Source: Ferruginibacter sp.
Lineage (GTDB): Bacteria > Bacteroidota > Bacteroidia > Chitinophagales > Chitinophagaceae
Length of the DNA stretch: 64,000 bases
Direction: 5' to 3'
Assembly (NCBI GenBank): GCA_046590675.1
Contig: JBKJUP010000022.1
Location: 6,961 to 70,960, forward strand
Position 1 is the first letter of the stretch. Each line of letters opens with the position of its first letter. The notes under the pieces are model-generated. The model did not search any database, was not told the origin of the DNA, and was given only the letters and a program-made list of their open reading frames with translations. A program made the position numbers and the translations under genes. This document shows positions 39,987 through 59,010 of this stretch, in pieces.

Positions 39987-42011
39987 ATGAAAAAAAGCTC
40001 CATTCTTATTTCTTTTTGCATTTTGTTGGCATTTACCACAATGGCTCAAACAAAGACTAAGGTAAAATATATAGATCCGGCTAACATGGATCAAAACATA
40101 AAACCAGGTGATGATTTTTATCTATACGCCAATGGTGCCTGGATTAAAAACAATCCCGTACCACCTTCAAAAACACGTTGGAGCACATTTGCTGTTTTAG
40201 CAGAAGAGGCATCTAACTCTCTTAAAGAGTTATTAGATGATGCTGCAAAACATCCTGAAAAGAGCAGGCTCAATCAAATGGTTGGTGGCTTTTATGCCAG
40301 TGCCATGGATAGTGCTGCTATCGAAAAATTAGGATTTACTCCCATAAAAGGCGAACTGGAACGCCTTGGAAAAATTAGCACGCTGAATGAAGTAATTGAT
40401 GAACTTGCCACGCTTCGGGTAAGAGGGGTTGCTGTGCCACTGTTTGGATTTTTTATTGGACAGGATTCAAAAAAAGTTACCGAATATATTCCCCAGTTTG
40501 GCCAGGGTGGAACCACCTTACCTGACCGTGATTATTATTTAAAAAATGATGCCCGCAGCACCAATATCAGGAAGGAATATATTTCCTACATCACTGATAT
40601 GTTTAAACTCACGGGAGTAGATGAAGCAACTGCAGCCAAAAATGCGGATGTAATACTGGCCCTCGAAACAGCGTTGGCCAATGCTCAATTGAGCCGTGTT
40701 GAAATGAGGGATCCACAGAAATTGTATAACAAGTATTTGGTGGATGATTTTACTAAAACAACCTCAACCATCAACTGGAGAGACCTGATGAGTAAAATGA
40801 AGGTCAACCACCAGGATAGTATCATTGTAAGTAACCCTACATTTTTACGATTTGCAGACAGCCTGCTGCCGGTAACGCCTGTTAGTACCTGGAAAACTTA
40901 TCTTCAATGGTATGTTATAAAAAATGCAGCTTCTTCACTCAGCAATGATTTTGTAGAAAGAAATTTTGAATTTACCAAGGTACTTTCCGGCCAGAAAGAA
41001 ATGACGCCACGCTGGCAGCGTATGAGTGGATTAACGGATAATGTACTGGGCGATTTGCTGGGTCAATTGTATGTTGCAAAATATTTTAAACCCGCCGCTA
41101 AACAACGTATGATGGACCTGGTTAGTAACCTGCAAAAAGCTTTTGAAGAAAGAATAAAAATGCTTGATTGGATGAGTGCCGAAACAAAAGAAAAAGCACT
41201 TATAAAATTAAATGCTTTTGGAAAAAAGATCGGTTACACCGACAAATGGAAAACCTATGATGGTGTTGTAATTGATAAAAATAATTTTGTTGAAAACATA
41301 AGAAATATTTCAGTTTGGGCATACAATGACCGCATACAAAAATTGGGGAAACCGGTAGATAAAACAGAATGGAACTTTACCCCTCCTACTATCAATGCAT
41401 CTTATAGCCCTGTGAGAAATGAAATTACTTTCCCGGCAGGTATTTTACAATCTCCATTCTATGATTTTAATGCAGATGATGCTGTAAACTATGGTGGAAT
41501 TGGTGCAGTTATCGGGCATGAGATGACGCATGGTTTTGATGACCAGGGCAGGCAGTTTGATGCTGATGGAAACTTAAGGGACTGGTGGACCGAAGATGAT
41601 GCGAAACAATTTAAGATGAAAACAGACAAGGTAGTTGACGAGTATAACGGCTTCACGGTGTTAGACACTTTGCACCTGAACGGAAAACTTACATTGGGCG
41701 AAAACATTGCTGACCTTGGTGGACTTAACATGGCTTATGCTGCGTTTAAGAAAACAGCGGCAGGCCAGTCAAATAAAAAGATTGACGGCTTTACACCCGA
41801 CCAACGTTTTTTCCTGGGATGGGCGCAAATATGGAGACAAAATTCTTTGCCTGAAACTTCAGCTCAGTTGGTGTTGATTGATCCACACTCACCTGGTGAA
41901 TTTAGAACCAATGGAACGGTCGTGCAACTGGATGCATTTTACAAAGCCTTTAATGTAAAAGAAGGAGATAAAATGTACCTGCCACCGGCGAAGAGAATTC
42001 ATATCTGGTAG
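39987..42011 (+). CDS. M13 family metalloendopeptidase (PepO-like)
   Basis: GHEMTHGFD (HEXXH), NASY, GENIADLGG, HSPGEFR. Confidence 0.93.
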   Translation: MKKSSILISFCILLAFTTMAQTKTKVKYIDPANMDQNIKPGDDFYLYANGAWIKNNPVPPSKTRWSTFAVLAEEASNSLKELLDDAAKHPEKSRLNQMVGGFYASAMDSAAIEKLGFTPIKGELERLGKISTLNEVIDELATLRVRGVAVPLFGFFIGQDSKKVTEYIPQFGQGGTTLPDRDYYLKNDARSTNIRKEYISYITDMFKLTGVDEATAAKNADVILALETALANAQLSRVEMRDPQKLYNKYLVDDFTKTTSTINWRDLMSKMKVNHQDSIIVSNPTFLRFADSLLPVTPVSTWKTYLQWYVIKNAASSLSNDFVERNFEFTKVLSGQKEMTPRWQRMSGLTDNVLGDLLGQLYVAKYFKPAAKQRMMDLVSNLQKAFEERIKMLDWMSAETKEKALIKLNAFGKKIGYTDKWKTYDGVVIDKNNFVENIRNISVWAYNDRIQKLGKPVDKTEWNFTPPTINASYSPVRNEITFPAGILQSPFYDFNADDAVNYGGIGAVIGHEMTHGFDDQGRQFDADGNLRDWWTEDDAKQFKMKTDKVVDEYNGFTVLDTLHLNGKLTLGENIADLGGLNMAYAAFKKTAAGQSNKKIDGFTPDQRFFLGWAQIWRQNSLPETSAQLVLIDPHSPGEFRTNGTVVQLDAFYKAFNVKEGDKMYLPPAKRIHIW

Positions 42012-42095
42012 TTGAGATAAATCAAAAGTAAAAAGTAAAAAAAAACCTATCACCGTATGCTTACTAGAAGTCCAATTCGGTTTGAGGTAGTTAAA

Positions 42096-42185
42096 GTTGC
42101 CATGAAAAACGAGAGACGAACGGAGTCCCGATTAAAATACGGGATAGACTGTCGCCACCCGATAACTATCGGATGAAACTCCATT
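42096..42185 (+). repeat. Dispersed repeat family B, copy 4 (with inserted palindromes)
   Basis: GTTGCCATGAAAA...GAACGGAG[TCCCG..CGGGA]TAGACTGTCGCCACC[CCGATAACTATCGG]ATGAAA. Confidence 0.6.
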
Positions 42186-42257
42186 AAAAAAAAATGTTGG
42201 TGAACCAATAAATATTTTAAAAGACTAATTGATAAGGGCCGCATAAACTATGCGGCC

Positions 42258-43043
42258 CTATTTTTTTGATCCGTTTGCGTAATGCTCCAACATTATTTCA
42301 TACACTTTTTCTTTTAGTGGAACTGTTTTAATCCCTTCTGAAGAAACAGGTGGTAAAAAATCCATCCTTAACCTGGTTGGTAATAAGTAAAATCCTTTTG
42401 CAATAGGAATGGCCTCTTTTGTGCCAAATATCACACAGGGCATCACCTTCTTCTTTGTGTCCACTGCAACTTTAAAAGCGCCGTCATAAAAGGGTTTCAT
42501 GGGCAGGTCTGTACGATTGCGGGCACCTTCCGGGTATATACATATATGCATATTTGCCAGCACCACTTTTTTCATATCCTCAAAACTTTTTCTTCGGCTA
42601 TTGTTATCATTTCTATCTACCAATACGGATCCTCTTTTGTAGAAATATCCAAAGATGGGAACCTTGGCAAAGGAAGCTTTAGCAATGGTTTTATTGGGAC
42701 CGGGAACAAAAGGCGCCGAAAGCGGAACATCTAATAAAGCATTGTGATTATAAACAATTACATAGGCTTCCCCGTCTTTGAAATTTTCTTTTCCGGTAAC
42801 TTTTAGCGGGCACCCAATCATATACAACCAGGTTGTCATCCACACTCTTGATACCGCAATAAAATATTTTTGTCCTTTCCATTCATCGCGGAAAAGGTAG
42901 GCGCACATTGAAGGAATGAAAATGATGAGAAAAGTAATGATGAAAGAAAGCATGCCCCATACTGCCCAAACCCTGCCAAATACATCTGTTAAAAAACCTC
43001 CGAAACTTTGTTTCTTTTTTGTTGTGCTGATAATCTCCGTCAT
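42258..43043 (-). CDS. plsC: 1-acyl-sn-glycerol-3-phosphate acyltransferase
   Basis: NHNALLD (HX4D), IYPEGARNR, FYDGAF. Confidence 0.88.
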   Translation of the reverse strand: MTEIISTTKKKQSFGGFLTDVFGRVWAVWGMLSFIITFLIIFIPSMCAYLFRDEWKGQKYFIAVSRVWMTTWLYMIGCPLKVTGKENFKDGEAYVIVYNHNALLDVPLSAPFVPGPNKTIAKASFAKVPIFGYFYKRGSVLVDRNDNNSRRKSFEDMKKVVLANMHICIYPEGARNRTDLPMKPFYDGAFKVAVDTKKKVMPCVIFGTKEAIPIAKGFYLLPTRLRMDFLPPVSSEGIKTVPLKEKVYEIMLEHYANGSKK

Positions 43044-43072
43044 AAATTATAGCGCCATTCCCGGCTATTTTT

Positions 43073-43756
43073 TTAAGGTGTAAGTAATTTCCAGTCGATG
43101 GGGTCAAGCCCTTGCCTGGTGAGTAGTTCATTGGTTTTTGAAAAGTGTTTGCAACCATAAAAACCTTTTTCAACACTAAAAGGAGAAGGGTGTGCCGCTT
43201 TTAAAACAAAATGTTTTGTTTCATCAATTAAGGCTTGCTTTTCCTGCGCAAACTTACCCCATAATAAAAAAACAACGCCGGCTTTTTGAGCAGAAATTTT
43301 TTCAATAACTGCATCCGTAAAATTCATCCATCCAATTTTAGCGTGACTGGCGGGTTCGTTAGCTCTTACCGTTAGTATGGCATTTAACAATAAAACGCCC
43401 TGCTCTGCCCAATGGGTAAGATTACCATAACCAACCGGCATAGGTATGCCAAGATCTGTTTGAATTTCTTTGTAAATATTTGCCAGCGAGGGAGGTGGCT
43501 TTATCCCTGCAGGAACTGAAAAACTTAAACCATGTGCCTGACCGGGATTGTGGTAGGGATCCTGCCCTAAAATTACCACCCGTATTTTATCAAATGGCGT
43601 TCGGTTAAAAGCATTAAAAATAAGCGGTCCCGGCGGATAAATGATCTTCTCTGCTGATTTCTCCCTTTTTAAAAATGTGACAATTTCCAGGAAATAAGGC
43701 TTTGTAAACTCATTCTTCAGCACTTCTGTCCAGGAGGCTTCCATTTGTACATCCAT
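43073..43756 (-). CDS. ung: Uracil-DNA glycosylase
   Basis: GQDPYH, GLSFS, QGVLLLN, AHPSP. Confidence 0.97.
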   Translation of the reverse strand: MDVQMEASWTEVLKNEFTKPYFLEIVTFLKREKSAEKIIYPPGPLIFNAFNRTPFDKIRVVILGQDPYHNPGQAHGLSFSVPAGIKPPPSLANIYKEIQTDLGIPMPVGYGNLTHWAEQGVLLLNAILTVRANEPASHAKIGWMNFTDAVIEKISAQKAGVVFLLWGKFAQEKQALIDETKHFVLKAAHPSPFSVEKGFYGCKHFSKTNELLTRQGLDPIDWKLLTP

Positions 43757-43887
43757 TTAAAAACATTTTAGTAAATGTACAAAAGCCCATCAAACTATTC
43801 ATGCAATAATATGCCGTGCAATATTGCAGATACCGGTCAATATTGAGTCAATAAGCAATTGGTTGTTCCAGACCTTAAAACATTTTA

Positions 43888-46809
43888 TTACTTTAATAAT
43901 CCATCTAAAGTAATGGCAACATAATAAAGGGCACCAATGGTTGGACCGCCGGCATATTGAATGTTGCGGTTGTTTAAAATATTAGTGCCACCAAATTTTA
44001 TAGTGGTTTTTGCAGCCGGCATTCTATAGGTTATTTGAGCATCTATATTATTGATGGCATCAATCCGGCCTGTAACCAATGGACTTTCCCATAAAAAGCT
44101 ATCCTGCCATTTCCACACGATGTTAAACCCAACATGCGTTGATATAGCCCTGTTTCCAAACGATAAATTGGATGTGTATTTAGGCGTATTAAACCCCGTT
44201 ATAAAAAGATCTTTTGTTGCATTTGTCTTTATGTTGTTGTAATTGAAATTACCAGATAGCGTAAAGGTTTTGTAAATATTATAGGTGATACCAGCGGAGG
44301 AACCGTAACTGGTGTATTTATTATTTGCATTTGTATAAACCCTATAACGCTCCTGTCCTTTGCTGGCAGCATTGCCTCCGGATGCTGCAGTAGCGTCCCT
44401 GTTGCGATCAATCATGGCGATGATGGCTGCATCAGACCCTATCTTTTCATCAATGGGTACATACACCTGTACTTGACCTAAAAAGCCATCATAAATATTT
44501 GTGTAAGCATCTATATCAATAAACACTTTGTTGTTGAATAAAGAACCTTTATAGCCTACTTCAAATGAGTTGATGCCTTCCGGCCTGCCATTGGGCAAGT
44601 TACCCGGTTGCAACAGATTCCTGTTTTGTAATGCTGCAGCATCCGTATTACCAGCCAGTTTAACCGCCGCATTAAATGCAGCCACACTTGATTGCGTGTA
44701 ACTGTTTTCACGATACCCAAGGCCTTCATCAATAACCGGCAAAATGCCTACCCTCTTTACCCTGCCATTGTTTACATAAGACAATGCTTCAAACAATGCC
44801 GGAAAGCGATAGCCCTGTTGAAAGGTAAAACGAAAATTATGCCGTTGCTTAACCGTATAAACTGCGGCTATCCTTGGTGTAAGTTTGGCAGAAAATTCAG
44901 GGTTGTAATCAGCCCTGAGTGATCCCCATAACTTCAGTTTTTCTTTAAAGAAAGTTTTTGTGAGTTGTGCAAATCCTCCGATTTTTTTATAATAAATATT
45001 TTCCCCGAAACTGCCATCGGTTAATGCTGTATTTCTATCTGCAACCGAACGTTTAAAGTCAACAAAATTATTTCCATCCGGAATAACCTGGTATAATCTT
45101 GCATCAGCACCTACTAACAACGTAAAATATTTAACCAGTTTGGTTAGATCCAATTGTCCTTCTACATGATATAGGTTACTCTTTTGTACAAGCGCAGCAC
45201 CACCGGTTACTGGTGCGTTGGGAATGGTGGCAGATTTAATATCCCAATTATTGATGTGAATAATAGAATCCCTTACTGTATTAAATCTTGCGGTACCTGC
45301 TTCTACCCTGCCTGCATCTGCCTGTTCTCTTGCAAACAGCGACGCCGCCGCCAGGTTGCTACTGGTTAAGGCGCCTCCATGATCCATAGCGTAATTATTT
45401 AAAGCAGCTTTGTACTTATTGCCCCATACAGATGCACTACCGCCGGTATATAGATCAAGGTTGTCTGCCAATGGTTTTACATTATACGAGTCGCCGGAAT
45501 TTTCATGGGAAGTATATGCCTTGACGGTAAAATTGCTTCCCTTCAATTCCAACTGGTGATTTTGCACAACTACATTATCCAGCTTAATTTTATTGCCCCG
45601 TTGAAATACACCATCCATTTTTCCTACCCGATAACTATAGTTTAATTGTGTACCGCCATTGAATTTATAAACAAATGCTGCATCCAGTTTTAAATTATCC
45701 ACTTTGGGATTTACCAGGTCTTTCTCCCAATAACCCGTGCGACTTACCGTTAGTGTTTTATTTGGTGATCCATCTATATTCAATCCTGTTACTGATATGG
45801 TATTACTACCCGCCAATGCATCGTCGCCATATTTGTTCCAGCCATCAAATGCAATATTGTTGGCTCCATTTAATGCGGTGTAATTTGGGTTAGCAGTATT
45901 GTGTGTATTTGGATTCTGATCAAGCCGTGAATCAGAAATCCAGTCTGTACCCTGCATATAGCCTGCATTTATTTTAAAAGCAAACTTATTATTGAAAGCC
46001 TTTGCATAGCGTATAGCAGTTTCAGTTAGCAATGCCGGGGCATGGTCAGTTCCATCTACATGATTGATACCGGTTCTATGAAAAAGACTCAATCCCTGGG
46101 AAGTAAATGGATTCTTAGTAATAAGATTCGACATGCCATTAATGGCATTCATACCATATAACGCCGAAGCTGCACCAGGCGTAACTTCTATGCTTTGAAT
46201 ATCCAGCTCCGTGGGGCCAATCGCGTTGCCTAATGGAACACCCAAGGTTGCTGCCTGCATATCGATTCCATCTACCAGTTGCATAAAACGAAAATTATTA
46301 GGAATATTAAACCCACGGGTATTGGGCACTTTAAAGGTGATAGAAGATGTGGTAAGCTGTACACCTTTTACATTCCCCAATGCATCATAGAATGAAGCAG
46401 CCGGCGTTTCCTTCAATGACCGGACATCGAGTTTTTCGATGCTTACCGGCGACTTCGATATTTTTTCTGTACCCCTGCTGGCAGTAACTACCACTTCATT
46501 TGCAAGAAAGGTTTGAGTGGTTAACTGAATGGCAAGTTTTGTGTTGATGTTTTTGATTTCAATTTCCTGAGGGGCAAATCCTACTGAACTTATAATGATG
46601 GTAAAAGGAAATTTTTGATTAATCACCAACGAAAAATTTCCGGCAGAATCGCTGATCGTTCCTTTGCTTGCGCCTTTTACAGAAATGCTTGCGGCCGATA
46701 ATGGCTCATGATTTTCGCCGATCACCTTACCACTCAAAATAACAGTTCCATTTAATTGAGCGAATGATATTGCAGGTATAAATACAAAAATGATTAGTAA
46801 ATTTTTCAT
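43888..46809 (-). CDS. TonB-dependent receptor at the distal end of the cys cluster
   Basis: Signal peptide, CarbopepD_reg-like domain, plug (NTRGFN, GAASALYG), barrel; 973 aa. Confidence 0.88.
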   Translation of the reverse strand: MKNLLIIFVFIPAISFAQLNGTVILSGKVIGENHEPLSAASISVKGASKGTISDSAGNFSLVINQKFPFTIIISSVGFAPQEIEIKNINTKLAIQLTTQTFLANEVVVTASRGTEKISKSPVSIEKLDVRSLKETPAASFYDALGNVKGVQLTTSSITFKVPNTRGFNIPNNFRFMQLVDGIDMQAATLGVPLGNAIGPTELDIQSIEVTPGAASALYGMNAINGMSNLITKNPFTSQGLSLFHRTGINHVDGTDHAPALLTETAIRYAKAFNNKFAFKINAGYMQGTDWISDSRLDQNPNTHNTANPNYTALNGANNIAFDGWNKYGDDALAGSNTISVTGLNIDGSPNKTLTVSRTGYWEKDLVNPKVDNLKLDAAFVYKFNGGTQLNYSYRVGKMDGVFQRGNKIKLDNVVVQNHQLELKGSNFTVKAYTSHENSGDSYNVKPLADNLDLYTGGSASVWGNKYKAALNNYAMDHGGALTSSNLAAASLFAREQADAGRVEAGTARFNTVRDSIIHINNWDIKSATIPNAPVTGGAALVQKSNLYHVEGQLDLTKLVKYFTLLVGADARLYQVIPDGNNFVDFKRSVADRNTALTDGSFGENIYYKKIGGFAQLTKTFFKEKLKLWGSLRADYNPEFSAKLTPRIAAVYTVKQRHNFRFTFQQGYRFPALFEALSYVNNGRVKRVGILPVIDEGLGYRENSYTQSSVAAFNAAVKLAGNTDAAALQNRNLLQPGNLPNGRPEGINSFEVGYKGSLFNNKVFIDIDAYTNIYDGFLGQVQVYVPIDEKIGSDAAIIAMIDRNRDATAASGGNAASKGQERYRVYTNANNKYTSYGSSAGITYNIYKTFTLSGNFNYNNIKTNATKDLFITGFNTPKYTSNLSFGNRAISTHVGFNIVWKWQDSFLWESPLVTGRIDAINNIDAQITYRMPAAKTTIKFGGTNILNNRNIQYAGGPTIGALYYVAITLDGLLK

Positions 46810-46915
46810 TACCGAAAAAAGTTAGATGTTAATTTAATAGCTGTTGAAAACTACGCAGCAGATTCAACTGCGAAAGATGCTGTTCAAATAAAATGAGAAC
46901 AGTTAATAAAAATAT

Positions 46916-46951
46916 TTACCGACAACATCGGTTTAGTAGCAGACGTCTCAT
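46916..46951 (-). CDS. Putative Cys-Cys leader peptide upstream of the TonB receptor
   Basis: MRRLLLNRCCR* (TGT TGT), 14 nt downstream of operator motif, 106 nt upstream of receptor ATG. Confidence 0.5.
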   Translation of the reverse strand: MRRLLLNRCCR

Positions 46952-46965
46952 AAAGAAGTTTAAAA

Positions 46966-46984
46966 GTCTATAATTTTAATGGAC
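46966..46984. promoter_or_regulatory. cys-cluster palindromic operator, copy 1
   Basis: GTCTA-TAATTTTAA-TGGAC. Confidence 0.6.
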
Positions 46985-47012
46985 TAATTAAGTAAAAAAA
47001 TAGTTAGGGTAG

Positions 47013-48566
47013 TTACATAATATGCATGATTGCTTTAAACAAAGTATTAATACTGGTTAAAATAACCAATGCACCAACAGCTATAAACATCGTTTTCATA
47101 GGTAGCTTACCAACCAGTCTTGCGGCAATGGGCGCTGCAATTAAACCTCCCAGTATCAAGCCTGCAACTTCAAGGATAGGTATGGTTTTTAACAATATAA
47201 AAAATGTGATTGAACTCGTAAGCACTACGAAAAATTCCGCCAGGCAAACTGATCCAATTACATACCGTGGACTTCTGCGCTTAGCCATTAGCGTGCTGGT
47301 TACCAGAGTACCCCAGCCACCACCGGCAAATGCATCCATAAAACCACCCACTGATGCAAGCCATCCTGCCTTCTTCACTTTATCCAGTTGATTCCTTTTG
47401 GCAAATGCTTTTCTTATTATAAAATAGCCAAGATAGAGGGTGTAAAAACATAGTGGTATGCGGATATACTCGGTAATTCTTTGTCCGAAAAAAGCACAGG
47501 CAGCACCAATGATGGCACCAATTACGCCGGGTATTACCAGTGTTTTAAATAATTTTTTATTGATGTTCCCAAAACGATGGTGGCTGTACCCGGAAACCCC
47601 ACTGGAGAATACCCTGGCCGAATGCACCTGGCTACTCACAAGCGCCGGGTTAACGCCATAAGCCAATAAGAAAGTTGTGGAAATCGTACCATAGCCCATA
47701 CCCAACGACCCGTCAGCCATCTGTGCTAAAAACCCAATGACCAGCATCAGCAAAAAAGCCTGTTTATCAAACTTAAATGGAAGCGATGAAAAACTTTCGG
47801 CCATTTGATGAAACGGTACCATCGACAATATACCATGTCCAATAATCATTAATAAAAAAGCCAGCAGGCACCACATTACAATCTTTGGCCATTTTTTTTG
47901 CTCCGGTTTATTAATCGTTTGCAAATTGGCTTGTTTGGAAACCAATACTGTTGTGAGGCTGTTTAACTGTTTTACTTTTTCATCAAAATCGCCGTTGATA
48001 TTGCCGCGGATCGCCTGGATATTGTTGAGCACATTCTCCATTTCATCCGGTATCAAATTTCCGATTACTTCTTTTAAGCGCTTGGCAATGGTGGGTGATT
48101 TACCGTTCGTAGATATCGCTATTTTAATGCTTCCTTTTTGAACAACAGAACTAAGATAAAAATCACACAGATCAGGCTTATCAGCCGCATTAATCAACTT
48201 CCCCTTTGCTTTTGCATCGATGGTTACCTGTTCGCTCACTACCCTGTCATTCACTGCTGCTATCACAAGATCAGCTCCATCAATATCGCCGGATTCATAC
48301 CGTCTTTCTATTAATTGTATCCTGGGATTAGTGGCCACGATGGCACGAATGGCATCACTTATTTCAGGTGCCACCAGTTTTACATTTGCTTCCGGAGAAT
48401 TTTGTAATACAGCCGTTAATTTTTCTAACCCAACATATCCACCGCCAACAATCAACAGTTGCAATTTATCCAACTTAAGAAATATTGGAAACAACGGATT
48501 GATAGCCGCTATGTCTTCAACAGGGTCCATACCCGACTGTTCCAAAATTGTTCTTTTAACATCCAT
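47013..48566 (-). CDS. Fusion of siroheme synthase dehydrogenase/ferrochelatase (CysG-B) domain with TauE/SafE (TSUP) transporter
   Basis: LFPIFLKL, VGGGYVG, NAADKPDLCDFY, ISTNGKSP; then ADGSLGMGYG, GGGWG TSUP motifs. Confidence 0.88.
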   Translation of the reverse strand: MDVKRTILEQSGMDPVEDIAAINPLFPIFLKLDKLQLLIVGGGYVGLEKLTAVLQNSPEANVKLVAPEISDAIRAIVATNPRIQLIERRYESGDIDGADLVIAAVNDRVVSEQVTIDAKAKGKLINAADKPDLCDFYLSSVVQKGSIKIAISTNGKSPTIAKRLKEVIGNLIPDEMENVLNNIQAIRGNINGDFDEKVKQLNSLTTVLVSKQANLQTINKPEQKKWPKIVMWCLLAFLLMIIGHGILSMVPFHQMAESFSSLPFKFDKQAFLLMLVIGFLAQMADGSLGMGYGTISTTFLLAYGVNPALVSSQVHSARVFSSGVSGYSHHRFGNINKKLFKTLVIPGVIGAIIGAACAFFGQRITEYIRIPLCFYTLYLGYFIIRKAFAKRNQLDKVKKAGWLASVGGFMDAFAGGGWGTLVTSTLMAKRRSPRYVIGSVCLAEFFVVLTSSITFFILLKTIPILEVAGLILGGLIAAPIAARLVGKLPMKTMFIAVGALVILTSINTLFKAIMHIM

Positions 48567-48629
48567 AAATTCCGAAAAAATTGCCTGAAAATATTTTAAA
48601 GTAATTAGATCTCAGCGAAGATATCTATT

Positions 48630-48648
48630 CTCTACCAAATTAATAGAC
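48630..48648. promoter_or_regulatory. cys-cluster palindromic operator, copy 2
   Basis: CTCTA-CCAAATTAA-TAGAC. Confidence 0.65.
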
Positions 48649-48712
48649 TAATCAATATTATTTTTTTATGCCACCATTTTGGCTGCCCTTTTTGATCAAT
48701 AAACAAGCGCTT

Positions 48713-50374
48713 TTAATGTTGGATATAGGTGCGATTGGTAAAGTCGCCGAATGTTTCATTGGCAGATCGATTGCTAACAAAGGATGTAAATAATGTATCT
48801 AATTCACCAAGGATGCTGTGCTCTTCCAGGTTTTCTTTGAACAAGGTATTTAATCTTTGTCCTTCATTATCGCCACCAATGTGCAGGTTGTATCTACCCG
48901 GCCCGGTACCCACCAAACCAATTTCCGCCGCATAAGGTCTGCCGCATCCATTGGGACATCCCGTCATTCGCATGATGATATTTTCCTGCTCCAGTTGGTG
49001 CTTTACAAGTAAAGGTTCTATTTTAGAAATCAGTGATGGCATGTAACGCTGTGCCTCTGCCAATGCCAGCGGGCAGGTTGGTAAGGCCACACAGGCAATC
49101 GCATTTTTACGAATTGCAGAAGCCGCCGCTGTATGTTCCAGTATATTAAACTTCGCTAAAATATCATTGATGGCATCTTTATCTTCCGGTGCCACATCGC
49201 TGATAATCATATTTTGATTGGCGGTAAACATAAAGCTTGCCTTACCGGTTTTTGCAACTTCATTCAGGGCCGTTTTCAAGGCAATCGTTTCGTCGTCCAG
49301 CACACGGCCATTTTCTATAAACAAAGTGTAATACCAACGTCCTTCATGGTTTTGTTCCCAGCCATAATTATCAACACGGCGTTTAAATTCGTAAGGCCTT
49401 GCAGGTTCCATTGCAAAACCTGTACGTTGCTCAACTTCTTCTTTATACTTATCCATTCCAAGCCTGTCCACCGTATATTTCAACCTGGCCAGTTTGCGAT
49501 CGCTCCTGTTGCCAAAGTCACGCTGAACGGTCAATATTTCATAAACTGTCTTAAGCACTTTTTCTTCTGTGTCAACAAACCCCATTACTGTAGCCAGCCT
49601 GGCGTAGGTCTCCTGGTTACCATGTGTAGTTGATAATCCACCGCCTATCGCAACGTTAAATCCTTTCAATTCATTGTCTTCAATAATAGCAATCAGGCCA
49701 ATATCATTGGCAAAAACATCTACGTCATTATTGGGCGGAATGCCAATTCCAATTTTAAATTTACGCGGCATATAACTATCCCTGTATAACGGATCTTCTT
49801 CTATTTTTTTGTCGGCCACCTTTTCTTCATCCAGCCATATTTCGTAGTATGCTTTTGTTTTGGGCATCAACATCGAACTAATCTTGTCTGCAAAAGCAAA
49901 CACCTTGGCATGCAGAGGCGATTCATTGGGGTGAGCACTGCAGGTAACGTTGCGGTTAATGTCGCCGCAGGTTGCAATACTATCCAGCTTTGCCTCATTA
50001 AAAGCCTGGATGGTTGGCTTTATTTTCGACTTAATGATACCATGCAGTTGTATTGTTTGGCGGGTGGTAATTTTAATAACGCCGGTCGAATTTTCACCAG
50101 CCACATCATTTACAGCCAGCCATTTTTCGGCTGATATAAAACCACCGGGCAGGCGTAAACGAATCATGTAGCTGTAAAGCCGGTCAAGTTTTTTTGTGGC
50201 ACGTTCTTCCCTGCGATCCCTGTTGTCCTGCTGGTACATCCCGTGAAACTTAATCAGCGCCTGGTCGTCTTCACGAATGGCGCCTGTTATTTCATCCTGC
50301 AAACTTTCCCTGATGGTGCCACGCAGTGCGTTACTCTCAACTTTAATTTTTTCTATTGCTGATAATTTTGACAT
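48713..50374 (-). CDS. cysI: Sulfite reductase hemoprotein subunit
   Basis: KFHGMYQQD, CGDINRNV, PRKFKI, CVALPTC, GCPNGC; start at MSKLSA. Confidence 0.95.
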   Translation of the reverse strand: MSKLSAIEKIKVESNALRGTIRESLQDEITGAIREDDQALIKFHGMYQQDNRDRREERATKKLDRLYSYMIRLRLPGGFISAEKWLAVNDVAGENSTGVIKITTRQTIQLHGIIKSKIKPTIQAFNEAKLDSIATCGDINRNVTCSAHPNESPLHAKVFAFADKISSMLMPKTKAYYEIWLDEEKVADKKIEEDPLYRDSYMPRKFKIGIGIPPNNDVDVFANDIGLIAIIEDNELKGFNVAIGGGLSTTHGNQETYARLATVMGFVDTEEKVLKTVYEILTVQRDFGNRSDRKLARLKYTVDRLGMDKYKEEVEQRTGFAMEPARPYEFKRRVDNYGWEQNHEGRWYYTLFIENGRVLDDETIALKTALNEVAKTGKASFMFTANQNMIISDVAPEDKDAINDILAKFNILEHTAAASAIRKNAIACVALPTCPLALAEAQRYMPSLISKIEPLLVKHQLEQENIIMRMTGCPNGCGRPYAAEIGLVGTGPGRYNLHIGGDNEGQRLNTLFKENLEEHSILGELDTLFTSFVSNRSANETFGDFTNRTYIQH

Positions 50375-50599
50375 AGTATTTTCAACCCTTTTGCCTAAGT
50401 CTCCCAAAGGAGTCCGTTCAACAGGCTGACCATTTTTGAATCATCCTGTGAGGCTTTGTTAATAATATTAATTCCAAATTTTCCCAGGCCCAAAGGGAAT
50501 CATTTAAACAGCTTTACTTTTAATTTCTGTAACCGTTAAGGCTTGCTTTATTTCAAATAATTAAAAAACCTTTTGTCCCGGCATTGCATCAATTTTCAT

Positions 50600-50624
50600 C
50601 TTCAGTGGCGTCGCACTCTTGTAC
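50600..50624 (+). repeat. Short dispersed repeat family A, copy 2
   Basis: CTTCAGTGGCGTCGCACTCTTGTAC. Confidence 0.8.
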
Positions 50625-50701
50625 AAAATATCATTACTGAACATTTTCCACCTCCCGTATAAATAACAATAACGTGGTAACAAATCCTTAAACTCCCCAT
50701 A

Positions 50702-50738
50702 GCCCTGCCCTCCTCTTCGGGGAGGATAAAGGTGGGGC
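50702..50738. repeat. REP-like hairpin (family C) just after cysJ stop
   Basis: GCCCTGCCCTCCTCTTCGGGGAGG...GGGGC. Confidence 0.55.
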
Positions 50739-50745
50739 AGCCTTT

Positions 50746-52458
50746 CTAATACACATCCTTCTCGTACCTGCCTGCGTGTTCCATTTGCTCCAGGTAATGT
50801 TTTGCTTCATCACCCGTTTTCTTTCCATGCTCCGCTATTATTCCCAACAATGTTTTTTCTACATCCACACTCATCGGATCTTTTTTACCGCACACAAAGA
50901 AAGAACCGCCGCCTTCCAGCCATTGAAACAATTCGGCACCATGCTGTTCCATTTTATGCTGCACATATAATTTCTCTTTCTGATCCCTGGAAAATGCAAG
51001 ATTCACATTTGTCAACACACCTGTTTCATACCAGTTTTGTATTTCTGTCTGGTATAAAAAGTCGGTAGCAAAATGTTGCTCCCCAAAAAACAGCCAGTTT
51101 CTACCGGTAGCGCCTGTCGCATCTCTTTCAGCAAGGAAAGAACGAAAGGCGGCAATGCCCGTACCCGGACCAACCATCACTACATCTTTCTCCGCAGCCG
51201 GTAAACGAAAGCGCTTGTTAGCCTGTACAAAAAAGTTTTGAGTACTTCCTTCTTTCAAATAACTTAAGTAGTCGGAGCAAAGCCCAAACTTCGTGTCGCC
51301 GTTAATGATATACTCGTCCTTTACCACCACAATATGTACTTCACCTTCGTGTGCAGCCGGTGAAGAGGCAATGGTGTAAAGCCTTGGCGACATAGCGTTC
51401 AGCTTAAGAATTATTTCTTCAAACTGGGCAACATCTTTTACAGGATATATTTTCAGCAGGTCGAGCAGGTTCATTTTAGTAGCAGGAATTTCCTGTTGCA
51501 CCGCATCCGCATATTGCTTTACCAACCTTTCTGTTAAATGAATGATATTGATTTTATACTTCAACAGGTCGAAAATTGTAACCTGCTCTTTTTTAAATTC
51601 TACTATTTTATTAGCATCAGCTCCGCTAACTGCAAGGATGGCTTCTACTTCCGCTGTAGGATTTTCCGGGTAAATACCGATGGAGTCACCACATATATAT
51701 TCTACTCCTTCCGCTTCAATTTCTATATGCCAGGTTTCTTTATTTGAACCATGATCGTTTAGGTTGATAGCAGAAAGCACTTTGCCGGTATATTTTTGCT
51801 TTCCGGCTTTTTTTGCAGGTACTTCAGTGGTCGGCGCTACTGCTACCGCTGCATCGGCTTGTTGTGAATGCAACAGTTGCATCACTTGCAGAAACCAGCC
51901 GTTTGCATCTTCTTCATATTCCACATCGCATTTTTGTAAAGGAGCGATTCTTTCGCCACCCAATTTCTTTAATTGCTCATCTACGTCTTCGCCGGTTTTG
52001 CAATAAAGCGGGTAAGATGTATCGCCCAATGCCAGCACACTATATTTTAATTTACTCAGCTTAAATCCATTTTGGTGAATGTGATCGTAAAATTTTTGTG
52101 CAGCAATCGGTGGTTCACCTTCACCCTGTGTGCTGATAACGGCCAATAAATATTCTTCCTTTGGTAAATCTGTTAACCGGTATTGATCCATGCCAACAAC
52201 TTTGGCGTGAATGTGATGCTGTTTTGCCTTGGTGGCAAATTCGGTTGCAAGCCTTTTGGAGTTACCTGTTTCAGTACCATATACAATGGTTATTTTATTT
52301 ACGGCCGGTGCCGCTGTAACTGTCGGCGCAATCGTGTCTGTTTTTGCAACCTGCGCCTGAACCATACCATTTAAGTACCCATTCATCCAAATCAATTCAT
52401 CCTTACTGGCTGTATTGATGAGATCAAGAAATACTTTAAATTTTGAATCTCCTAACAT
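50746..52458 (-). CDS. cysJ: Sulfite reductase flavoprotein subunit
   Basis: Flavodoxin GTETGNS, STQGEG, ALGD..Y; FNR RLYTIASS, GPGTGIAAFR, YVQH. Confidence 0.92.
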   Translation of the reverse strand: MLGDSKFKVFLDLINTASKDELIWMNGYLNGMVQAQVAKTDTIAPTVTAAPAVNKITIVYGTETGNSKRLATEFATKAKQHHIHAKVVGMDQYRLTDLPKEEYLLAVISTQGEGEPPIAAQKFYDHIHQNGFKLSKLKYSVLALGDTSYPLYCKTGEDVDEQLKKLGGERIAPLQKCDVEYEEDANGWFLQVMQLLHSQQADAAVAVAPTTEVPAKKAGKQKYTGKVLSAINLNDHGSNKETWHIEIEAEGVEYICGDSIGIYPENPTAEVEAILAVSGADANKIVEFKKEQVTIFDLLKYKINIIHLTERLVKQYADAVQQEIPATKMNLLDLLKIYPVKDVAQFEEIILKLNAMSPRLYTIASSPAAHEGEVHIVVVKDEYIINGDTKFGLCSDYLSYLKEGSTQNFFVQANKRFRLPAAEKDVVMVGPGTGIAAFRSFLAERDATGATGRNWLFFGEQHFATDFLYQTEIQNWYETGVLTNVNLAFSRDQKEKLYVQHKMEQHGAELFQWLEGGGSFFVCGKKDPMSVDVEKTLLGIIAEHGKKTGDEAKHYLEQMEHAGRYEKDVY

Positions 52459-52511
52459 TTTTGCAATTTTATTGATTTATGTTGTATGCTTTGTTCGCTT
52501 TGGTAAAGCGG

Positions 52512-53381
52512 TTATTGGTATTTATTAATTGAGTTGCTAAACTGTCCCAATTCATCACTCACTAATTTTTCAAACTGAAAATCTTCAACCGGTTTAAAAT
52601 ATTCTCCTGTTTGCATTGTATAATTTAACCAGGCAAATTTTTCATTTAAAGCCACTACCCTGCCGATGATTACCAGGGTGGGTGAAGCAAACATTCTACC
52701 TTTTAAATTTTGTTCGTATTCATATAAATTACTGGTGTGGATTTGTTGCATTGGTGTTGTAGCCTGTTCTATCACTGCCAGTAATTTATCGGCTGCAATA
52801 TTATTCTTCACCAGGTTTTCCACAACGCCATCAAGCGTTTCAGACGACATGTAAAAAACAAGGGTATCATCGGAATTAGCCAACTCTTTCCAATAAACTG
52901 CAGATACCACATCTGATTTATAAAATGTTAACAGCCTAACTGCAGTGGCGTATCCCCTTGCGGTAAGTGGCATTCCTGCGTAGGCTGCTGCACCCAATGC
53001 TGCCGTAACACCCGGAACTATTTCATAAGGAATATTGTTGGCTACAATTGCTTCCAGCTCGTCCAGTATGTTGGAGAAAATAGATACATCACCTCCTTTT
53101 AAACGCACTACCAGCTTGCCTTCCTGTGCAAACTGTACGATCAGTTCATTGATGCTTTTTTGTGGCGTGCTAAAACCCCGGCGGCATTGCTTGCCCACAT
53201 AAATAATTTCAGCCTTTTCATTGGCATAGGTTGCCAGTATTTCTTTGCTTACCAACCGATCGGTTAATATTACATCTGCCAGTTGAAGATAGCGGGCTGC
53301 CTTTACGGTTATTAATTCCGGATCGCCGCAGCCTGCACCTGCAAGTATTACTTTTCCTGTATGTAAAATATTGTTACTCAT
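52512..53381 (-). CDS. cobA: Uroporphyrinogen-III C-methyltransferase (CysG-A)
   Basis: GAGCGDPELITVKA, VRLKGGD, VPGVTAA. Confidence 0.92.
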   Translation of the reverse strand: MSNNILHTGKVILAGAGCGDPELITVKAARYLQLADVILTDRLVSKEILATYANEKAEIIYVGKQCRRGFSTPQKSINELIVQFAQEGKLVVRLKGGDVSIFSNILDELEAIVANNIPYEIVPGVTAALGAAAYAGMPLTARGYATAVRLLTFYKSDVVSAVYWKELANSDDTLVFYMSSETLDGVVENLVKNNIAADKLLAVIEQATTPMQQIHTSNLYEYEQNLKGRMFASPTLVIIGRVVALNEKFAWLNYTMQTGEYFKPVEDFQFEKLVSDELGQFSNSINKYQ

Positions 53382-53386
53382 TTTAA

Positions 53387-53405
53387 GTCTACTATTTTAG
53401 TAGAT
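53387..53405. promoter_or_regulatory. cys-cluster palindromic operator, copy 3
   Basis: GTCTA-CTATTTTAG-TAGAT, 5 nt upstream of cobA ATG and just after a cysK terminator-like hairpin (CCTGGCG/CGCCAGG). Confidence 0.65.
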
Positions 53406-53457
53406 TATATATTGATAAAAATACCTGGCGAATATTATGCAACCGCCAGGCCATTAT

Positions 53458-54369
53458 TTAAAATAATCCTTCGATGGATAAATATCTTTCACCGGTATCA
53501 TAATTGTAAGTCAACACTTTTGCTCCTGCCGGAATTTCAGCCAGCTTTTTAGCAACTGCGGCTAAAGATGCACCTGTTGAAATACCAACCAAAATACCCT
53601 CCTCTCTTGCGATGCGCTGTGCATAATCAAATGCTTCTTCCTTTGATACTGCGATGGTGCCATCTAACATGGCCGTATTAAGAATTGAAGGTACAAAGCC
53701 TGCTCCAATACCCTGTATGGGGTGAGGGCCGGGTGCACCACCAGCCAACACCGGTGACAGTTCCGGCTCTACTGCAAAAACCTTCAGGTTGGGAAAATGC
53801 TTTTTCAACACTTCTCCCACGCCGGTGATATGGCCACCGGTACCTACGCCAGTAATTAAATAATCAAGTCCGTCCGGAAAGTCATTGAGTATTTCCTGTG
53901 CTGATGTGGTGCGGTGTATTTCAGTATTTGCAGGATTGTCAAATTGCTGCGGCATCCATCCGTTTGGAATTTCTTTTTCAAGTTCACCCGCTTTTTCTAT
54001 GGCACCCTTCATACCTTTTTCACGGGGAGTTAATACAAACTCTGCTCCGTACAATGCCATTAAACGACGACGTTCAATGCTCATGCTTTCGGGCATTACC
54101 AAAATAATTTTATATCCTTTTACGGCAGCTACCATTGCCAAACCAATACCCGTGTTACCGGATGTAGGTTCAATGATAACGCTGTCTTTATGAAGTATTC
54201 CTTTTTGTTCTGCATCTTCAATCATTGCCAATGCAATCCGATCTTTGATACTGGCGCCCGGGTTTGTTTTTTCCAATTTGATCCACACTTCATTTTTATC
54301 GCCGAATAAATTATTGATCCTTACGTGTGGCGTGTTACCGATTGTTTCTAAAATATTATTTGCTTTCAT
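53458..54369 (-). CDS. cysK: Cysteine synthase A
   Basis: [34 protein letters not shown]. Confidence 0.95.
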
Positions 54370-54457
54370 CTTATGTATTTTACTCCTTATTTATTTTACC
54401 CGGAGTTCTTGATTTAGGAATGCTATTTTATTTTTTTATGTTGACAAATGGTATTCA

Positions 54458-54481
54458 GTACAAGTGTGCGACGCAACGAAG
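54458..54481 (-). repeat. Short dispersed repeat family A, copy 3
   Basis: Reverse complement CTTCGTTGCGTCGCACACTTGTAC. Confidence 0.7.
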
Positions 54482-54566
54482 CTGCTATAAAAAGCTACTG
54501 CCTGGTACCAAAATTTTTTAAACAATTATATCAATCAAACTAAATTTCTTTTTAGAAAATACCAAC

Positions 54567-55400
54567 CTAAATCACAAAATTCAATACATCCGGCAAAGGA
54601 TTTTTATCCCTGATACTTACCTCACTTTTATGATATACAATTGAGTGTGGCAACACACTATTGGTGAGCCAAACGTTTCCGCCAATTACGCTATCATGAC
54701 CAATAACCGTTTCACCACCGAGAATGGTTGCCCCGGAATATATGATCACATCGTCCTGAATTGTTGGATGCCTTTTTGTTTTGGCTTCGTCTTTATTTAC
54801 GCTCAATGCACCCAATGTAACGCCCTGGTAAATTTTTACATTGTCGCCAATCAATGCAGTTTCGCCAATTACAACACCGGTGCCATGATCAATAAAAAAT
54901 GACTCACCTATTTGAGCTCCCGGGTGAATATCAATACCCGTTTTACCGTGTGCATATTCTGCAAAAACCCTTGGCAAAATTTTCACCCCGGCCTTCCAAA
55001 GCTGGTGACTGAACCGATAAACCGCAGTAGCATAAAAGCCGGGATAAGCCACCAGCACCTCATCCAGCGATTCCGCAGCCGGATCAAATTTCATGATGGC
55101 CGCAGCATCCTTCAACAGTGCATCATAAATATTTTCGATTTCGTCAAAGAATTCGTTTGCTATTCGTTGCGTTTGATCGCCATCATTTACCACATCATAA
55201 ATTAATGTTGACAAATGACTTTTATACGATTCAAACTCCTTTGACATTTCATACGCTGATATTTTTTTTTGCTTTTCAGGTATGAATAAAAATTCAAAAA
55301 AGCCATCAATAAATTCCGTCGCCAATTCCTTGTCAGGAAAAGAACGGGCACATTGCTGGCGCTTTATATGCAGCTTATTAATAAAATTTTCGTTACTCAT
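54567..55400 (-). CDS. cysE: Serine O-acetyltransferase
   Basis: DPAA, YPGF.A, TGIDIHPGAQIG, IDHGTG, KRHPT. Confidence 0.93.
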   Translation of the reverse strand: MSNENFINKLHIKRQQCARSFPDKELATEFIDGFFEFLFIPEKQKKISAYEMSKEFESYKSHLSTLIYDVVNDGDQTQRIANEFFDEIENIYDALLKDAAAIMKFDPAAESLDEVLVAYPGFYATAVYRFSHQLWKAGVKILPRVFAEYAHGKTGIDIHPGAQIGESFFIDHGTGVVIGETALIGDNVKIYQGVTLGALSVNKDEAKTKRHPTIQDDVIIYSGATILGGETVIGHDSVIGGNVWLTNSVLPHSIVYHKSEVSIRDKNPLPDVLNFVI

Positions 55401-55451
55401 GTTGGTGGATGATTCGTTGTTAACTCAAAATAAAAAAAGATAAAATTAAAA

Positions 55452-56693
55452 CTATTGAATCATACAAGCTCCAACTGTTACATTGCTTGTTTCGTCTATT
55501 AAAATAGCTCCCCCATTTTCTCTCAATTTTTTATAAGAATCAAATGTAACAGGCGATGCCGTTTTTATTTTCACTTTTACGATATCATTCAACTGTGCCT
55601 GTTCCGGTGCCGGTTCTTTTAGCAAAGAGTTTACATCTAACTTATATTCTATTTCTTTTACAACAGCTTTTACTACCCTGCTGTTAATTTGCAACAGGTA
55701 TTTGTTTCCTTCTTTTAAAGGTTTGTTGCCCATCCAGCAAAGCAATACATCCAGTTCATTTTCTACCGAAGGCAGGTTATCGCTTTTTACAATTACATCA
55801 CCCCTGCTGATATCGATGTCGTCCTGCAGGTGAAGTACCACGCTTTGTGGCGCAAATGCTTCTGCTACTTCTTTGCCACCAATTTCTATATTACTAATTA
55901 CACTTGTTAACCCCGACGGTTGCACGACAATTGAATCGCCCTTTTTATAAATGCCACTGATTACTTTTCCGGCATAGCCGCGATAATCGTGCAATACCTC
56001 TGTTTGAGGACGGATTACATACTGAACAGGAAACCTGGCATCGGTATAATTGATGTCATTTTTAACCTCTACATTTTCCAACAGGTGCAATAAAGACTCG
56101 CCTTCGTACCACGGAAAATTAGGCGATTTTTCAACAATATTATCGCCATTGATTGCACTGATGGGAATATAGGTAATGTCTTTTAATCCCAGGGAAGTTG
56201 CCACGGCAGAATAGTCGATCACAATATTATTGAACACATCCTGCGAATTATTTACAAGATCCATTTTATTAATGGCTACTACTACATGCGGCATATCGAG
56301 CAATGAAGCAATGATTGAATGCCTTCTTGTTTGTTCTGAAACGCCATTGCGGGCATCAACCAATATTATTATAAGATCGGAGTTGGATGCGCCTGTAACC
56401 ATGTTACGTGTGTACTGCGTATGGCCTGGTGCATCTGCAATAATAAATTTGCGGCTGGGTGTAGAAAAATATTTATAGGCCACATCAATGGTGATGCCCT
56501 GCTCTCTTTCTGCACGCAATCCGTCTGTTAATAAAGCCAGGTCAATTTCGCCGTCGGTTTTATTCTTACTTTGTTTTTCGATTGCTTCCAACTGATCAAT
56601 CATGATGGATTTACTGTCGTACAATAAACGTCCGATCAAAGTGCTTTTTCCATCATCAACACTACCTGCGGTTATAAATCTTAAAATGTCCAT
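55452..56693 (-). CDS. cysN: Sulfate adenylyltransferase subunit 1 (no fused CysC)
   Basis: GSVDDGKSTLIGRLL, EREQGITIDVAY, DAPGH, NKMD. Confidence 0.95.
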   Translation of the reverse strand: MDILRFITAGSVDDGKSTLIGRLLYDSKSIMIDQLEAIEKQSKNKTDGEIDLALLTDGLRAEREQGITIDVAYKYFSTPSRKFIIADAPGHTQYTRNMVTGASNSDLIIILVDARNGVSEQTRRHSIIASLLDMPHVVVAINKMDLVNNSQDVFNNIVIDYSAVATSLGLKDITYIPISAINGDNIVEKSPNFPWYEGESLLHLLENVEVKNDINYTDARFPVQYVIRPQTEVLHDYRGYAGKVISGIYKKGDSIVVQPSGLTSVISNIEIGGKEVAEAFAPQSVVLHLQDDIDISRGDVIVKSDNLPSVENELDVLLCWMGNKPLKEGNKYLLQINSRVVKAVVKEIEYKLDVNSLLKEPAPEQAQLNDIVKVKIKTASPVTFDSYKKLRENGGAILIDETSNVTVGACMIQ

Positions 56694-56697
56694 ATTA

Positions 56698-56822
56698 GCC
56701 CCTGTCCCTTAAAGGGGAACTTAGTTTTGCACAGTATTAAATTTGTTTAAAATACTGCTGGTTAAAAATATTAATCTCGTAGTTAGCCTAAGCTTGCCTT
56801 CCCCTCTTTAGGGTTGTGGGCT
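56698..56822. repeat. Two oppositely oriented REP-like hairpins (family C) in cysD-cysN spacer
   Basis: GCCCCTGTCCCTTAAAGGGGAAC at 56698 and CCTTCCCCTCTTTAGGGTTGTGGGC at 56797. Confidence 0.55.
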
Positions 56823-56829
56823 TCCGGGC

Positions 56830-57783: not shown

Positions 57784-57802
57784 ATAATAGTTTTAAAATA
57801 AT

Positions 57803-58543: not shown

Positions 58544-58604
58544 TTTTAAGTGTAAAATTGTTGGAGAAAAAATACCGGAGAAAATGATTTGACTTACTTG
58601 CTTA

Positions 58605-58667
58605 TCAGCAGCAGCGAATGGAGCTGCAACACTTGCACATATACATTATTTGAGGATTTGAAGCCAT
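58605..58667 (-). CDS. Cys-rich leader peptide of the cys operon
   Basis: MASNPQIMYMCKCCSSIRCC* (5 Cys in last 10 codons), tandem stops TGA TAA, 61 nt upstream of cysH. Confidence 0.75.
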   Translation of the reverse strand: MASNPQIMYMCKCCSSIRCC

Positions 58668-58679
58668 ATATTTATATAA

Positions 58680-58698
58680 GTCTATAGAATTAGTAGAC
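58680..58698. promoter_or_regulatory. cys-cluster palindromic operator, copy 4
   Basis: GTCTA-TAGAATTAG-TAGAC, overlapping the -7 element by 1 nt. Confidence 0.75.
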
Positions 58699-58705
58699 AA
58701 ATATA
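58698..58705 (-). promoter_or_regulatory. -7 promoter element of the cys operon
   Basis: Minus-strand TATATTTG exact TAnnTTTG match. Confidence 0.7.
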
Positions 58706-58981: not shown

Positions 58982-59010
58982 AAAAAGCCACGGATCTCTC
59001 CGTGGCTTTT
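58982..59010. terminator. Terminator after lipA
   Basis: AAAAGCCACGG-ATCTCT-CCGTGGCTTTT. Confidence 0.85.

Follow-up and report, generated by a model that had tools for sequence, protein, structure and literature searches.

A short open reading frame with conserved cysteine codons, probably a regulatory leader, upstream of a TonB-dependent receptor gene near the sulfate-assimilation cluster of a Ferruginibacter genome

In a 64,000-nucleotide stretch of a Ferruginibacter sp. genome (contig JBKJUP010000022.1, positions 6,961 to 70,960; called the window here), a TonB-dependent receptor gene comes after a sulfate-assimilation cluster, and the gap before it contains an 11-codon open reading frame (ORF) that encodes MRRLLLNRCCR. 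The question raised by this locus is whether the two adjacent Cys codons of the ORF are there by chance or belong to a leader through which cysteine supply controls the receptor gene, as was proposed in an earlier note made from the sequence of this DNA alone. Judged by sequence comparison, about a hundred related loci in Bacteroidota have kept the leader; it is probably a genuine translated regulatory ORF on which the ribosome would gauge charged tRNA-Cys, in addition to repression by an Rrf2-family protein.

The ORF reads ATG AGA CGT CTG CTA CTA AAC CGA TGT TGT CGG TAA on the minus strand, with the tandem Cys codons TGT TGT at 46927..46922 (Table 1). Its stop codon is separated from the ATG of the receptor gene (46809) by exactly 106 nucleotides (46915..46810). 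It lies upstream of the receptor gene on the same strand and has at least two consecutive Cys codons, which is the criterion used in bioRxiv 10.1101/834739. The earlier note had described an 11-codon ORF with TGT TGT near its stop, CTGTTC/GAACAG and GCAG/CTGC stems and a CAACAG element within the following 106 nucleotides, and a position just downstream of an operator, like that of the cysH leader. Every detail of this description is found in the sequence; the operator palindrome ends 13 nucleotides before the ATG of the ORF, much as it does at cysH.

Taken by itself, the ORF is not beyond chance. It is only 11 codons long, and 102 of the 2745 intergenic regions of the genome (3.7%) hold an ATG-initiated short ORF with Cys-Cys, which bears out the caution in the earlier note that a short ORF with two Cys codons can arise by chance; the proportion is 8.7% for short ORFs with either Cys-Cys or a terminal Cys. 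The leader is lifted above chance by its conservation in orthologues. The comparison set comprised 80 receptor loci from species-representative genomes, with 63 to 92% protein identity, from the genera Ferruginibacter, Hanamia, Sediminibacterium, Terrimonas, Pinibacter, Flavihumibacter, Flavitalea, Agriterribacter, Parasediminibacterium, Mucilaginibacter, Arcticibacter, and Solitalea. A usable upstream region was available for 77 of them, which with the window gives 78 loci, and a second set consisted of 80 further receptor loci from metagenome contigs. The last 300 nucleotides upstream of the receptor start were scanned for ATG-initiated short ORFs, with dinucleotide shuffles and the opposite strand as controls. 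An ORF with Cys-Cys is present in 44 of the 78 loci, versus a mean of 1.75 and a maximum of 7 in the shuffles and 0 on the opposite strand, and one with either Cys-Cys or Cys-stop is present in 63 (6.6 in the shuffles and 6 on the opposite strand). Cys is the commonest doubled residue in the upstream short ORFs; in the long ORFs of the genome, Cys-Cys occurs about 1.5 times per 10,000 codon pairs. The same leaders are found in metagenome loci of many genera, down to 51% receptor identity (e.g., MLVKFKIFTLVYFERCCY). The genome-wide Cys-leader hits do not include the paralogous receptor of 35% identity that lies on the same contig (C6:95166-97886). The check named in the earlier note, i.e., a search for the Cys-containing ORF upstream of receptor orthologues, thus had a positive outcome. 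With conservation in 63 of the 78 genome loci and in the metagenome loci, in a fixed frame, a chance origin of the two Cys codons is extremely improbable.

The conserved part of the leader is small. An 8-nucleotide core, CGATGTTG, recurs in 47 genome loci, and in all 47 it lies inside an ATG-initiated ORF that reads CGA TGT as Arg-Cys, compared with 1 and 3 loci for the other two frames; in the metagenome loci, the core is in the Arg-Cys frame of such an ORF in 27 of 28. The core is carried by 43 distinct peptides, whose sole common feature is Arg-Cys(-Cys) or Cys-stop near the end. It is followed by a second Cys codon (TGT or TGC) or by the stop codon TGA, so that the leaders fall into two types: ...RCC..., the type of the window, and ...RC directly before the stop, e.g., MIRNSKRRC of Sediminibacterium-like genomes. 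Distant orthologues without the core keep Cys runs in other codons (MRNAFNKYTSTLQPLHGCCCCRCCFNC, ...GCCCCRCCFNC, ...PTCCC, and ...AHCC), and in one of them, ...KRCCPCGQYL, the Arg-Cys-Cys is written AGA TGC TGC. Since Cys runs are kept with differing codons in distant orthologues as well as in the cysH leader, the constraint is on Cys, and largely on Arg-Cys, in the translated frame. Neither a chance ORF nor a motif that acts solely without translation fits this well. The Cys run is 0 codons from the stop in 24 of the 63 leaders, 0 or 1 codon in 33, and at most 8 codons in 57. A conserved and probably translated small ORF beside a transporter gene could also encode, instead of a sensor, a functional micropeptide such as a thiol- or metal-binding peptide or a Cys-containing receptor partner. 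The peptides are about 9 to 52 residues long, some have a single Cys as the last residue, nothing beyond the Arg-Cys(-Cys) near the end is common to them, and they have no conserved signal or membrane segment. Regulatory leaders typically show such a pattern, which makes a micropeptide function highly improbable.

Two further Cys leaders stand before cysteine-related genes of the same genome. The cysH leader (58605-58667, minus strand), MASNPQIMYMCKCCSSIRCC, ends in IRCC and a stop, written CGC TGC TGC TGA. The Arg-Cys-Cys-stop pattern thus recurs at cysH with different wobble bases. The cysS gene (C12:119401-120892), identified by a match above the cut-off of the TIGR00435 model, is preceded by the leader MLLKIHTYCFLSSCCCCTSECATIA (within C12:119100-119400), which contains six Cys residues, including a run of four, and starts about 11 nucleotides past a TATATTTG -7 box. 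The Cys codons of the cysS leader form the 5' arm of a hairpin, GTTGCAC...GTGCAAC.

The surroundings of the receptor gene are likewise linked to sulfur assimilation. The cluster in the window consists, in order on the minus strand, of cysH, cysD, cysN, a serine acetyltransferase gene, cysK, cobA, cysJ, cysI, and a gene for a fusion of sirohaem synthase and TauE, and the receptor gene comes after it. In most orthologous loci, the receptor gene adjoins tauE or cysI, and in several genera the leader and the receptor gene stand ahead of tauE and cysI, at the head of a tauE-cysI operon. The receptor of the window has no SusD partner, and its profile matches are to generic TonB-receptor models only. 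The stop codon of the tauE fusion is 27 nucleotides upstream of the palindrome, and the gap between the fusion gene and the receptor gene is 203 nucleotides. The fusion is a single 517-residue ORF with NAD_binding_7 and Sirohm_synth_M in its N-terminal part and a membrane domain of the TauE/SafE sulfite-exporter type, and it is kept in many related loci.

Codon usage around the Cys run is strongly biased. The preceding codon is CGA in 46 of the 63 leaders, i.e., in 46 of the 48 in which this residue is Arg. CGA is the rarest Arg codon of the genome, with 6.2% of all Arg codons and 7.2% of the Arg codons before Cys in genes. The tRNA-Arg genes of the genome have the anticodons ACG (two copies), CCG, CCT, and TCT; since none has UCG, CGA is readable only via the wobble position of tRNA-Arg(ACG), and this decoding is expected to go through inosine. 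TGT accounts for 79% of the leader Cys codons versus 54% genome-wide, and the stop directly after Cys is TGA in 22 of 24 leaders, TGA being the rarest stop codon (12% of stops). This bias is compatible with selection on decoding kinetics, in which a slow P-site codon stands beside the sensing A-site codon, and equally compatible with an additional sequence-specific function. Tentatively, the sensor may itself be a programmed codon context, i.e., CGA in the P site beside UGU in the A site, often followed by UGA; the slow and distorted CGA pair in the P site would then sensitize the ribosome, so that a single Cys codon, as in MIRNSKRRC, could report tRNA-Cys charging. A second tRNA-Cys was dropped as an explanation of the UGU bias: the gene called tRNA-Cys(ACA) by ARAGORN is a diverged tandem copy of tRNA-Val(TAC). 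The two genes lie in a tandem repeat of about 350 bp (C102:205-280 and 553-628), and the diverged copy, whose first acceptor pair is mismatched, whose discriminator base is A, and whose anticodon stem is remodelled, is probably degenerate or repurposed.

Conservation of CGA, TGT, and TGA beyond the coding need would also be expected if CGAUGUUG were an untranslated nucleic-acid motif, e.g., a site for a protein or a small RNA, and the surrounding ORF were incidental. The restriction of the core to the Arg-Cys frame of an ATG-initiated ORF speaks against such a motif, as do the distant orthologues and the cysH and cysS leaders, which keep Cys-Cys in other nucleotides (CGC TGC TGC; TGC TGT TGT TGC). 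The motif also has neither an Rfam family match nor a conserved pairing partner, and we consider this explanation very unlikely.

The leader is accompanied by a candidate operator and, in most genomes, by a promoter. The palindrome upstream of the leader recurs before cysH (58679..58699), before cobA (53386..53406), and before the genome's own Rrf2 gene, where a near-perfect copy (13 of 14 consensus positions) is located at C59:65758-65778 between a peroxiredoxin-like gene and the divergent Rrf2-family gene (C59:65810-66232). The protein encoded by the latter has a C-terminal Cys cluster (PCVSLNFYEKCADCDEATC) and matches the CymR and IscR models weakly, reaching the cut-off of the Rrf2 superfamily and not those of the CymR and IscR equivalogs. 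It is likely an autoregulated repressor of the cys regulon, and the operator named in the earlier note is credible as its binding site in view of the recurrence of the palindrome. The positional match with cysH, on which the earlier note had relied, extends to the orthologues, in which the palindrome is found upstream of the leader ATG in 54 of the 63 loci; 15 loci have an additional palindrome downstream of the leader. In the window and its subgroup (L025-L028, L073, and L092), the palindrome is at -14 to -49 from the leader ATG.

The Bacteroidota -7 box TAnnTTTG occurs within 90 nucleotides upstream of the leader ATG in 43 of the 63 loci, typically 12 to 35 nucleotides or more before it and often within or beside the palindrome, which implies short 5' untranslated regions. 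The presence of both elements upstream makes the short ORF the predicted first ORF of a repressor-controlled transcript in most genomes. The 7-nucleotide spacer of the palindrome is often itself a perfect -7 box, as in AGTCTA-TAATTTTG-GTAGACT, so that operator and promoter core coincide; this arrangement is seen in L029, L032, L034, L035, L037, L041, L042, L049, L058, and L100, many of which have a second palindrome between the leader and the receptor gene. The cobA palindrome, AATCTACTAAAATAGTAGACT (minus strand), is located between cysK and cobA, just past the cysK terminator hairpin and 5 nucleotides before the cobA ATG. This site has no leader ORF, and with so short a distance to the ATG a transcript that starts in the palindrome would be nearly leaderless.

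Several points weigh against the proposal of a cysteine-sensing leader. Under the criteria used, 15 of the 78 genome loci have no such leader, and the shuffle statistics ignore shared ancestry, although the leaders comprise 43 different peptides. In the promoter scan of the 63 leader loci, the window subgroup has no canonical -7 box upstream of the leader; the window leader may be read from a weak promoter or by read-through from the cys operon. The conservation of CGA, TGT, and TGA exceeds what the coding of Arg-Cys needs, so that a further constraint acts on these nucleotides. As for RNA structure, the 156-nucleotide leader folds no better than its shuffles (z = -1.08), and local folding z-scores around the Cys codons scatter about zero, with small motif hairpins that recur in no common register. 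No conserved pairing partner of the Cys region was found, the partner positions being scattered among the orthologous leaders. Intrinsic terminators are absent from many of these leaders, a hairpin with a T-run being present only in a minority, and the terminator-like hairpin of the window forms in the folds at every ribosome position.

The structural points bear directly on a transcription attenuator of the trp type, in which the position of the ribosome on the Cys codons would pick between alternative hairpins and thereby decide termination at a U-run. The window does contain a terminator-like hairpin with a T-run, and both recur in L025, the closest relative, where two one-sided changes preserve the pairing and two pairs are added; this lends modest support to a real terminator-like hairpin. 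A hairpin and T-run also directly follow the leader in some other loci. Since no metagenome relative is closer than 82% protein identity, L025 provides the only comparison for the window hairpins. In constrained minimum-energy folds of the nascent transcript, both the window and L025 formed three hairpins independent of one another, which stayed the same with the ribosome on the first Cys codon, on the second, on the stop codon, or absent. No anti-terminator overlaps the terminator hairpin, and the CAACAG element (46846..46841) reads CAACAT in L025. Such a terminator is missing from most orthologous leaders, and many of the post-leader T-runs stand at a fixed short distance before the second palindrome and thus belong to it, not to a hairpin. 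In genomes other than those of the window and L025, the sequence from the leader to the receptor gene cannot be aligned and is mostly without terminators. An attenuator of the trp type is therefore unlikely. The switch suggested in the earlier note, with CTGTTC/GAACAG pairing and CAACAG as the alternative partner, did not hold, given that the hairpins are independent of ribosome position and absent from distant relatives and that CAACAG is changed in L025.

Other searches for structure in this region gave little. No match was obtained in an Rfam 15 scan of window positions 40000..64000 at E <= 1. The Cys region shows no preference for the receptor start region as a pairing partner; about one-third of the partners are near the start, as the size of the search space predicts, and the partner in the window is at -75 from the ATG. 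As a hint of a Rho site, the spacer offers only a mild C excess, with a median C/G ratio of 1.54 in the family versus 1.07 genome-wide and with 18 C and 13 G in the window. In one class of leaders, MIRNSKRRC (L046, L048, L050, L051, L053, L055, L061, L067, and others), the Cys codon and the UGA stop lie within a conserved stem, AAAAGAC(G)...(C)GTCTTTT, and a second conserved hairpin, GTTGC...GCGAC, follows further downstream. The receptor gene precedes tauE and cysI in this class, which looks suitable for a covariance model.

Table 1. Positions of the leader, its neighbouring elements, and the flanking genes in the window
Feature	Position	Strand	Remarks
Sirohaem synthase-TauE fusion gene	47013..48566	minus	Final gene of the cys cluster, upstream of the leader on the same strand
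Rrf2-type palindromic operator AGTCCATTAAAATTATAGACT	46985..46965	minus	Predicted; 11/14 match to AGTCTAC-N7-GTAGACT
Leader ORF MRRLLLNRCCR	46951..46916	minus	11 codons and TAA; direct sequence reading
Core CGA TGT TGT (Arg-Cys-Cys)	46922..46930	minus	Opens with the 8-nucleotide motif CGATGTTG, 46930..46923
Small hairpin ACCGA-TGTTG-TCGGT around the Cys codons, then AAATATTTTTATT	46918..46932	minus	From folding; shared only with L025, no covariation support
Hairpin CTGTTC-N11-GAACAG	46880..46902	minus	Arms 46902..46897 and 46885..46880; stem identical in L025, absent from other relatives
Terminator-like hairpin CGCAGT-N7-GCTGCG, then TAGTTTT	46847..46872	minus	-7.4 kcal/mol; arms CGCAG(T) 46872..46867 and (G)CTGCG 46859..46854, then TAGTTTTC
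TonB-dependent receptor gene	43888..46809	minus	973 residues; CarboxypepD_reg-like and Plug domains; presumed controlled gene

Taken together, a conserved and translated regulatory leader with Cys codons is the likely explanation of this ORF, whereas confidence in any particular output mechanism is low. The independent cysteine-sensing leader of the earlier note is retained in part: the conserved Cys-containing ORF stood and the hairpin switch did not, and we infer the sensing itself, i.e., translation of the ORF, stalling at the Cys codons, expression at low cysteine, and the output step, from conservation and context only. The conserved unit would be Arg(CGA)-Cys(UGU) followed by Cys or a stop (UGN), at or near the end of an otherwise variable short ORF. 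Under cysteine scarcity, the ribosome would pause at UGU in the A site, CGA then occupying the P site. In most leaders the distance from the Cys codons to the stop is 0 to 8 codons, so that a ribosome stalled there would cover the end of the leader and about 12 to 15 nucleotides beyond. It could thus keep the receptor transcript alive and translatable by hindering premature termination or decay; the hindered termination might be factor dependent or, in the window, might occur at the hairpin and U-run. With ample cysteine, the ribosome would finish and leave, and receptor expression would be attenuated. This control would be added to transcriptional repression by the Rrf2-family repressor with its four cysteines, acting at the operator upstream of the leader. 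Shielding by the ribosome is favored because of one geometric regularity, i.e., the location of the Cys codons at or close to the end of the ORF.

Leaders with Cys codons were first predicted in Actinobacteria by Seliverstov et al. in 2005 (PMC1262725). The polycysteine short ORFs of mycobacteria (Ms5788A and the "Cys ribulon"), which are leaderless, were shown in Mycobacterium smegmatis to be cysteine-responsive attenuators that need no more than two consecutive Cys codons; the mechanism at Ms5788A is translational (Canestrari et al., bioRxiv 10.1101/834739). The leaders described here resemble the mycobacterial ones in that they are short ORFs before genes linked to sulfur or cysteine, in which an otherwise variable peptide has adjacent Cys codons close to its stop, at several loci per genome and without an evident classical pair of terminator and anti-terminator. 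They differ in their occurrence in Bacteroidota (Chitinophagaceae and Sphingobacteriales), where most orthologues have a -7 box ahead of the ATG and are predicted not to be leaderless, in the near-invariant rare CGA before Cys, in the many members with a single Cys and UGA, and in the target, which is an outer-membrane receptor gene combined with an Rrf2 operator. Unlike in Ms5788A, no pairing of the Cys tract with the start region of the downstream gene was found here, and sequestration of the start site is not supported.

The uORFC-8-2 motif of Rhodobacterales cysS contains an upstream ORF with tandem Cys codons, two conserved stems, and a terminal U-run; its Cys codons, at positions 14 and 15, are inside the first stem, and the motif has been interpreted as ribosome-mediated attenuation by tRNA-Cys supply (PMC8632094). 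The upstream ORF with two tandem conserved Cys codons is shared with the window, whereas the present leaders have no family-wide structure, UGU is dominant rather than UGC, and the target is a receptor. In addition, uORFC-8-2 precedes cysS, and cysS of the window's genome has its own Cys-rich leader.

In the tnaC leader of the Escherichia coli tryptophanase operon, the nascent TnaC peptide serves to sense free tryptophan, with the ribosome held where the leader ends. In the present family, a ribosome that stays at the leader end could similarly block a termination factor, and Cys next to the stop codon fits this geometry. The differences are that the proposed sensing is of tRNA charging and not of the free amino acid and that, with so mild a C excess in the spacer, no Rho site could be made out. 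Both a tnaC parallel and a termination factor have been proposed for the actinobacterial cys leaders (PMC1262725). With respect to the operator, the pairing of the leader with a palindrome common to cysH, cobA, and the Rrf2 gene resembles control of the CymR type; the Rrf2 protein is below the CymR and IscR equivalog cut-offs, and the likeness concerns the operator and not the leader ORF.

Short ORFs resembling leader peptides receive only general mention in transcriptome papers on Flavobacterium psychrophilum and Bacteroides thetaiotaomicron. In the literature searched, no Cys leaders were described in Bacteroidota or before TonB-dependent receptors, which does not by itself prove novelty. 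The leader would appear to work like the known Cys leaders; the new aspects are the phylum, the receptor as target, the CGA-UGU-UGN context with its single-Cys members, and the pairing with an Rrf2 operator.

If the leader functions as proposed, it would extend the Cys-leader device to Bacteroidota, a phylum whose translation initiation and promoters are unlike those of the model organisms, and would place a single gene under the double control of an Rrf2 repressor and a leader read by the ribosome. The rare CGA before Cys and the rare UGA after it offer a way to test how ribosome-based sensing is tuned by codon context, for which the roughly one hundred natural leader variants are a ready-made mutational series. 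Should the more tentative codon-context proposal be true, this context would be a minimal codon-pair sensor of an amino acid that needs no conserved RNA structure, by which many Chitinophagaceae and Sphingobacteriales would switch a sulfur-source importer of the outer membrane. For the organism itself, control by the leader would point to the orphan receptor as a probable sulfur-source importer.

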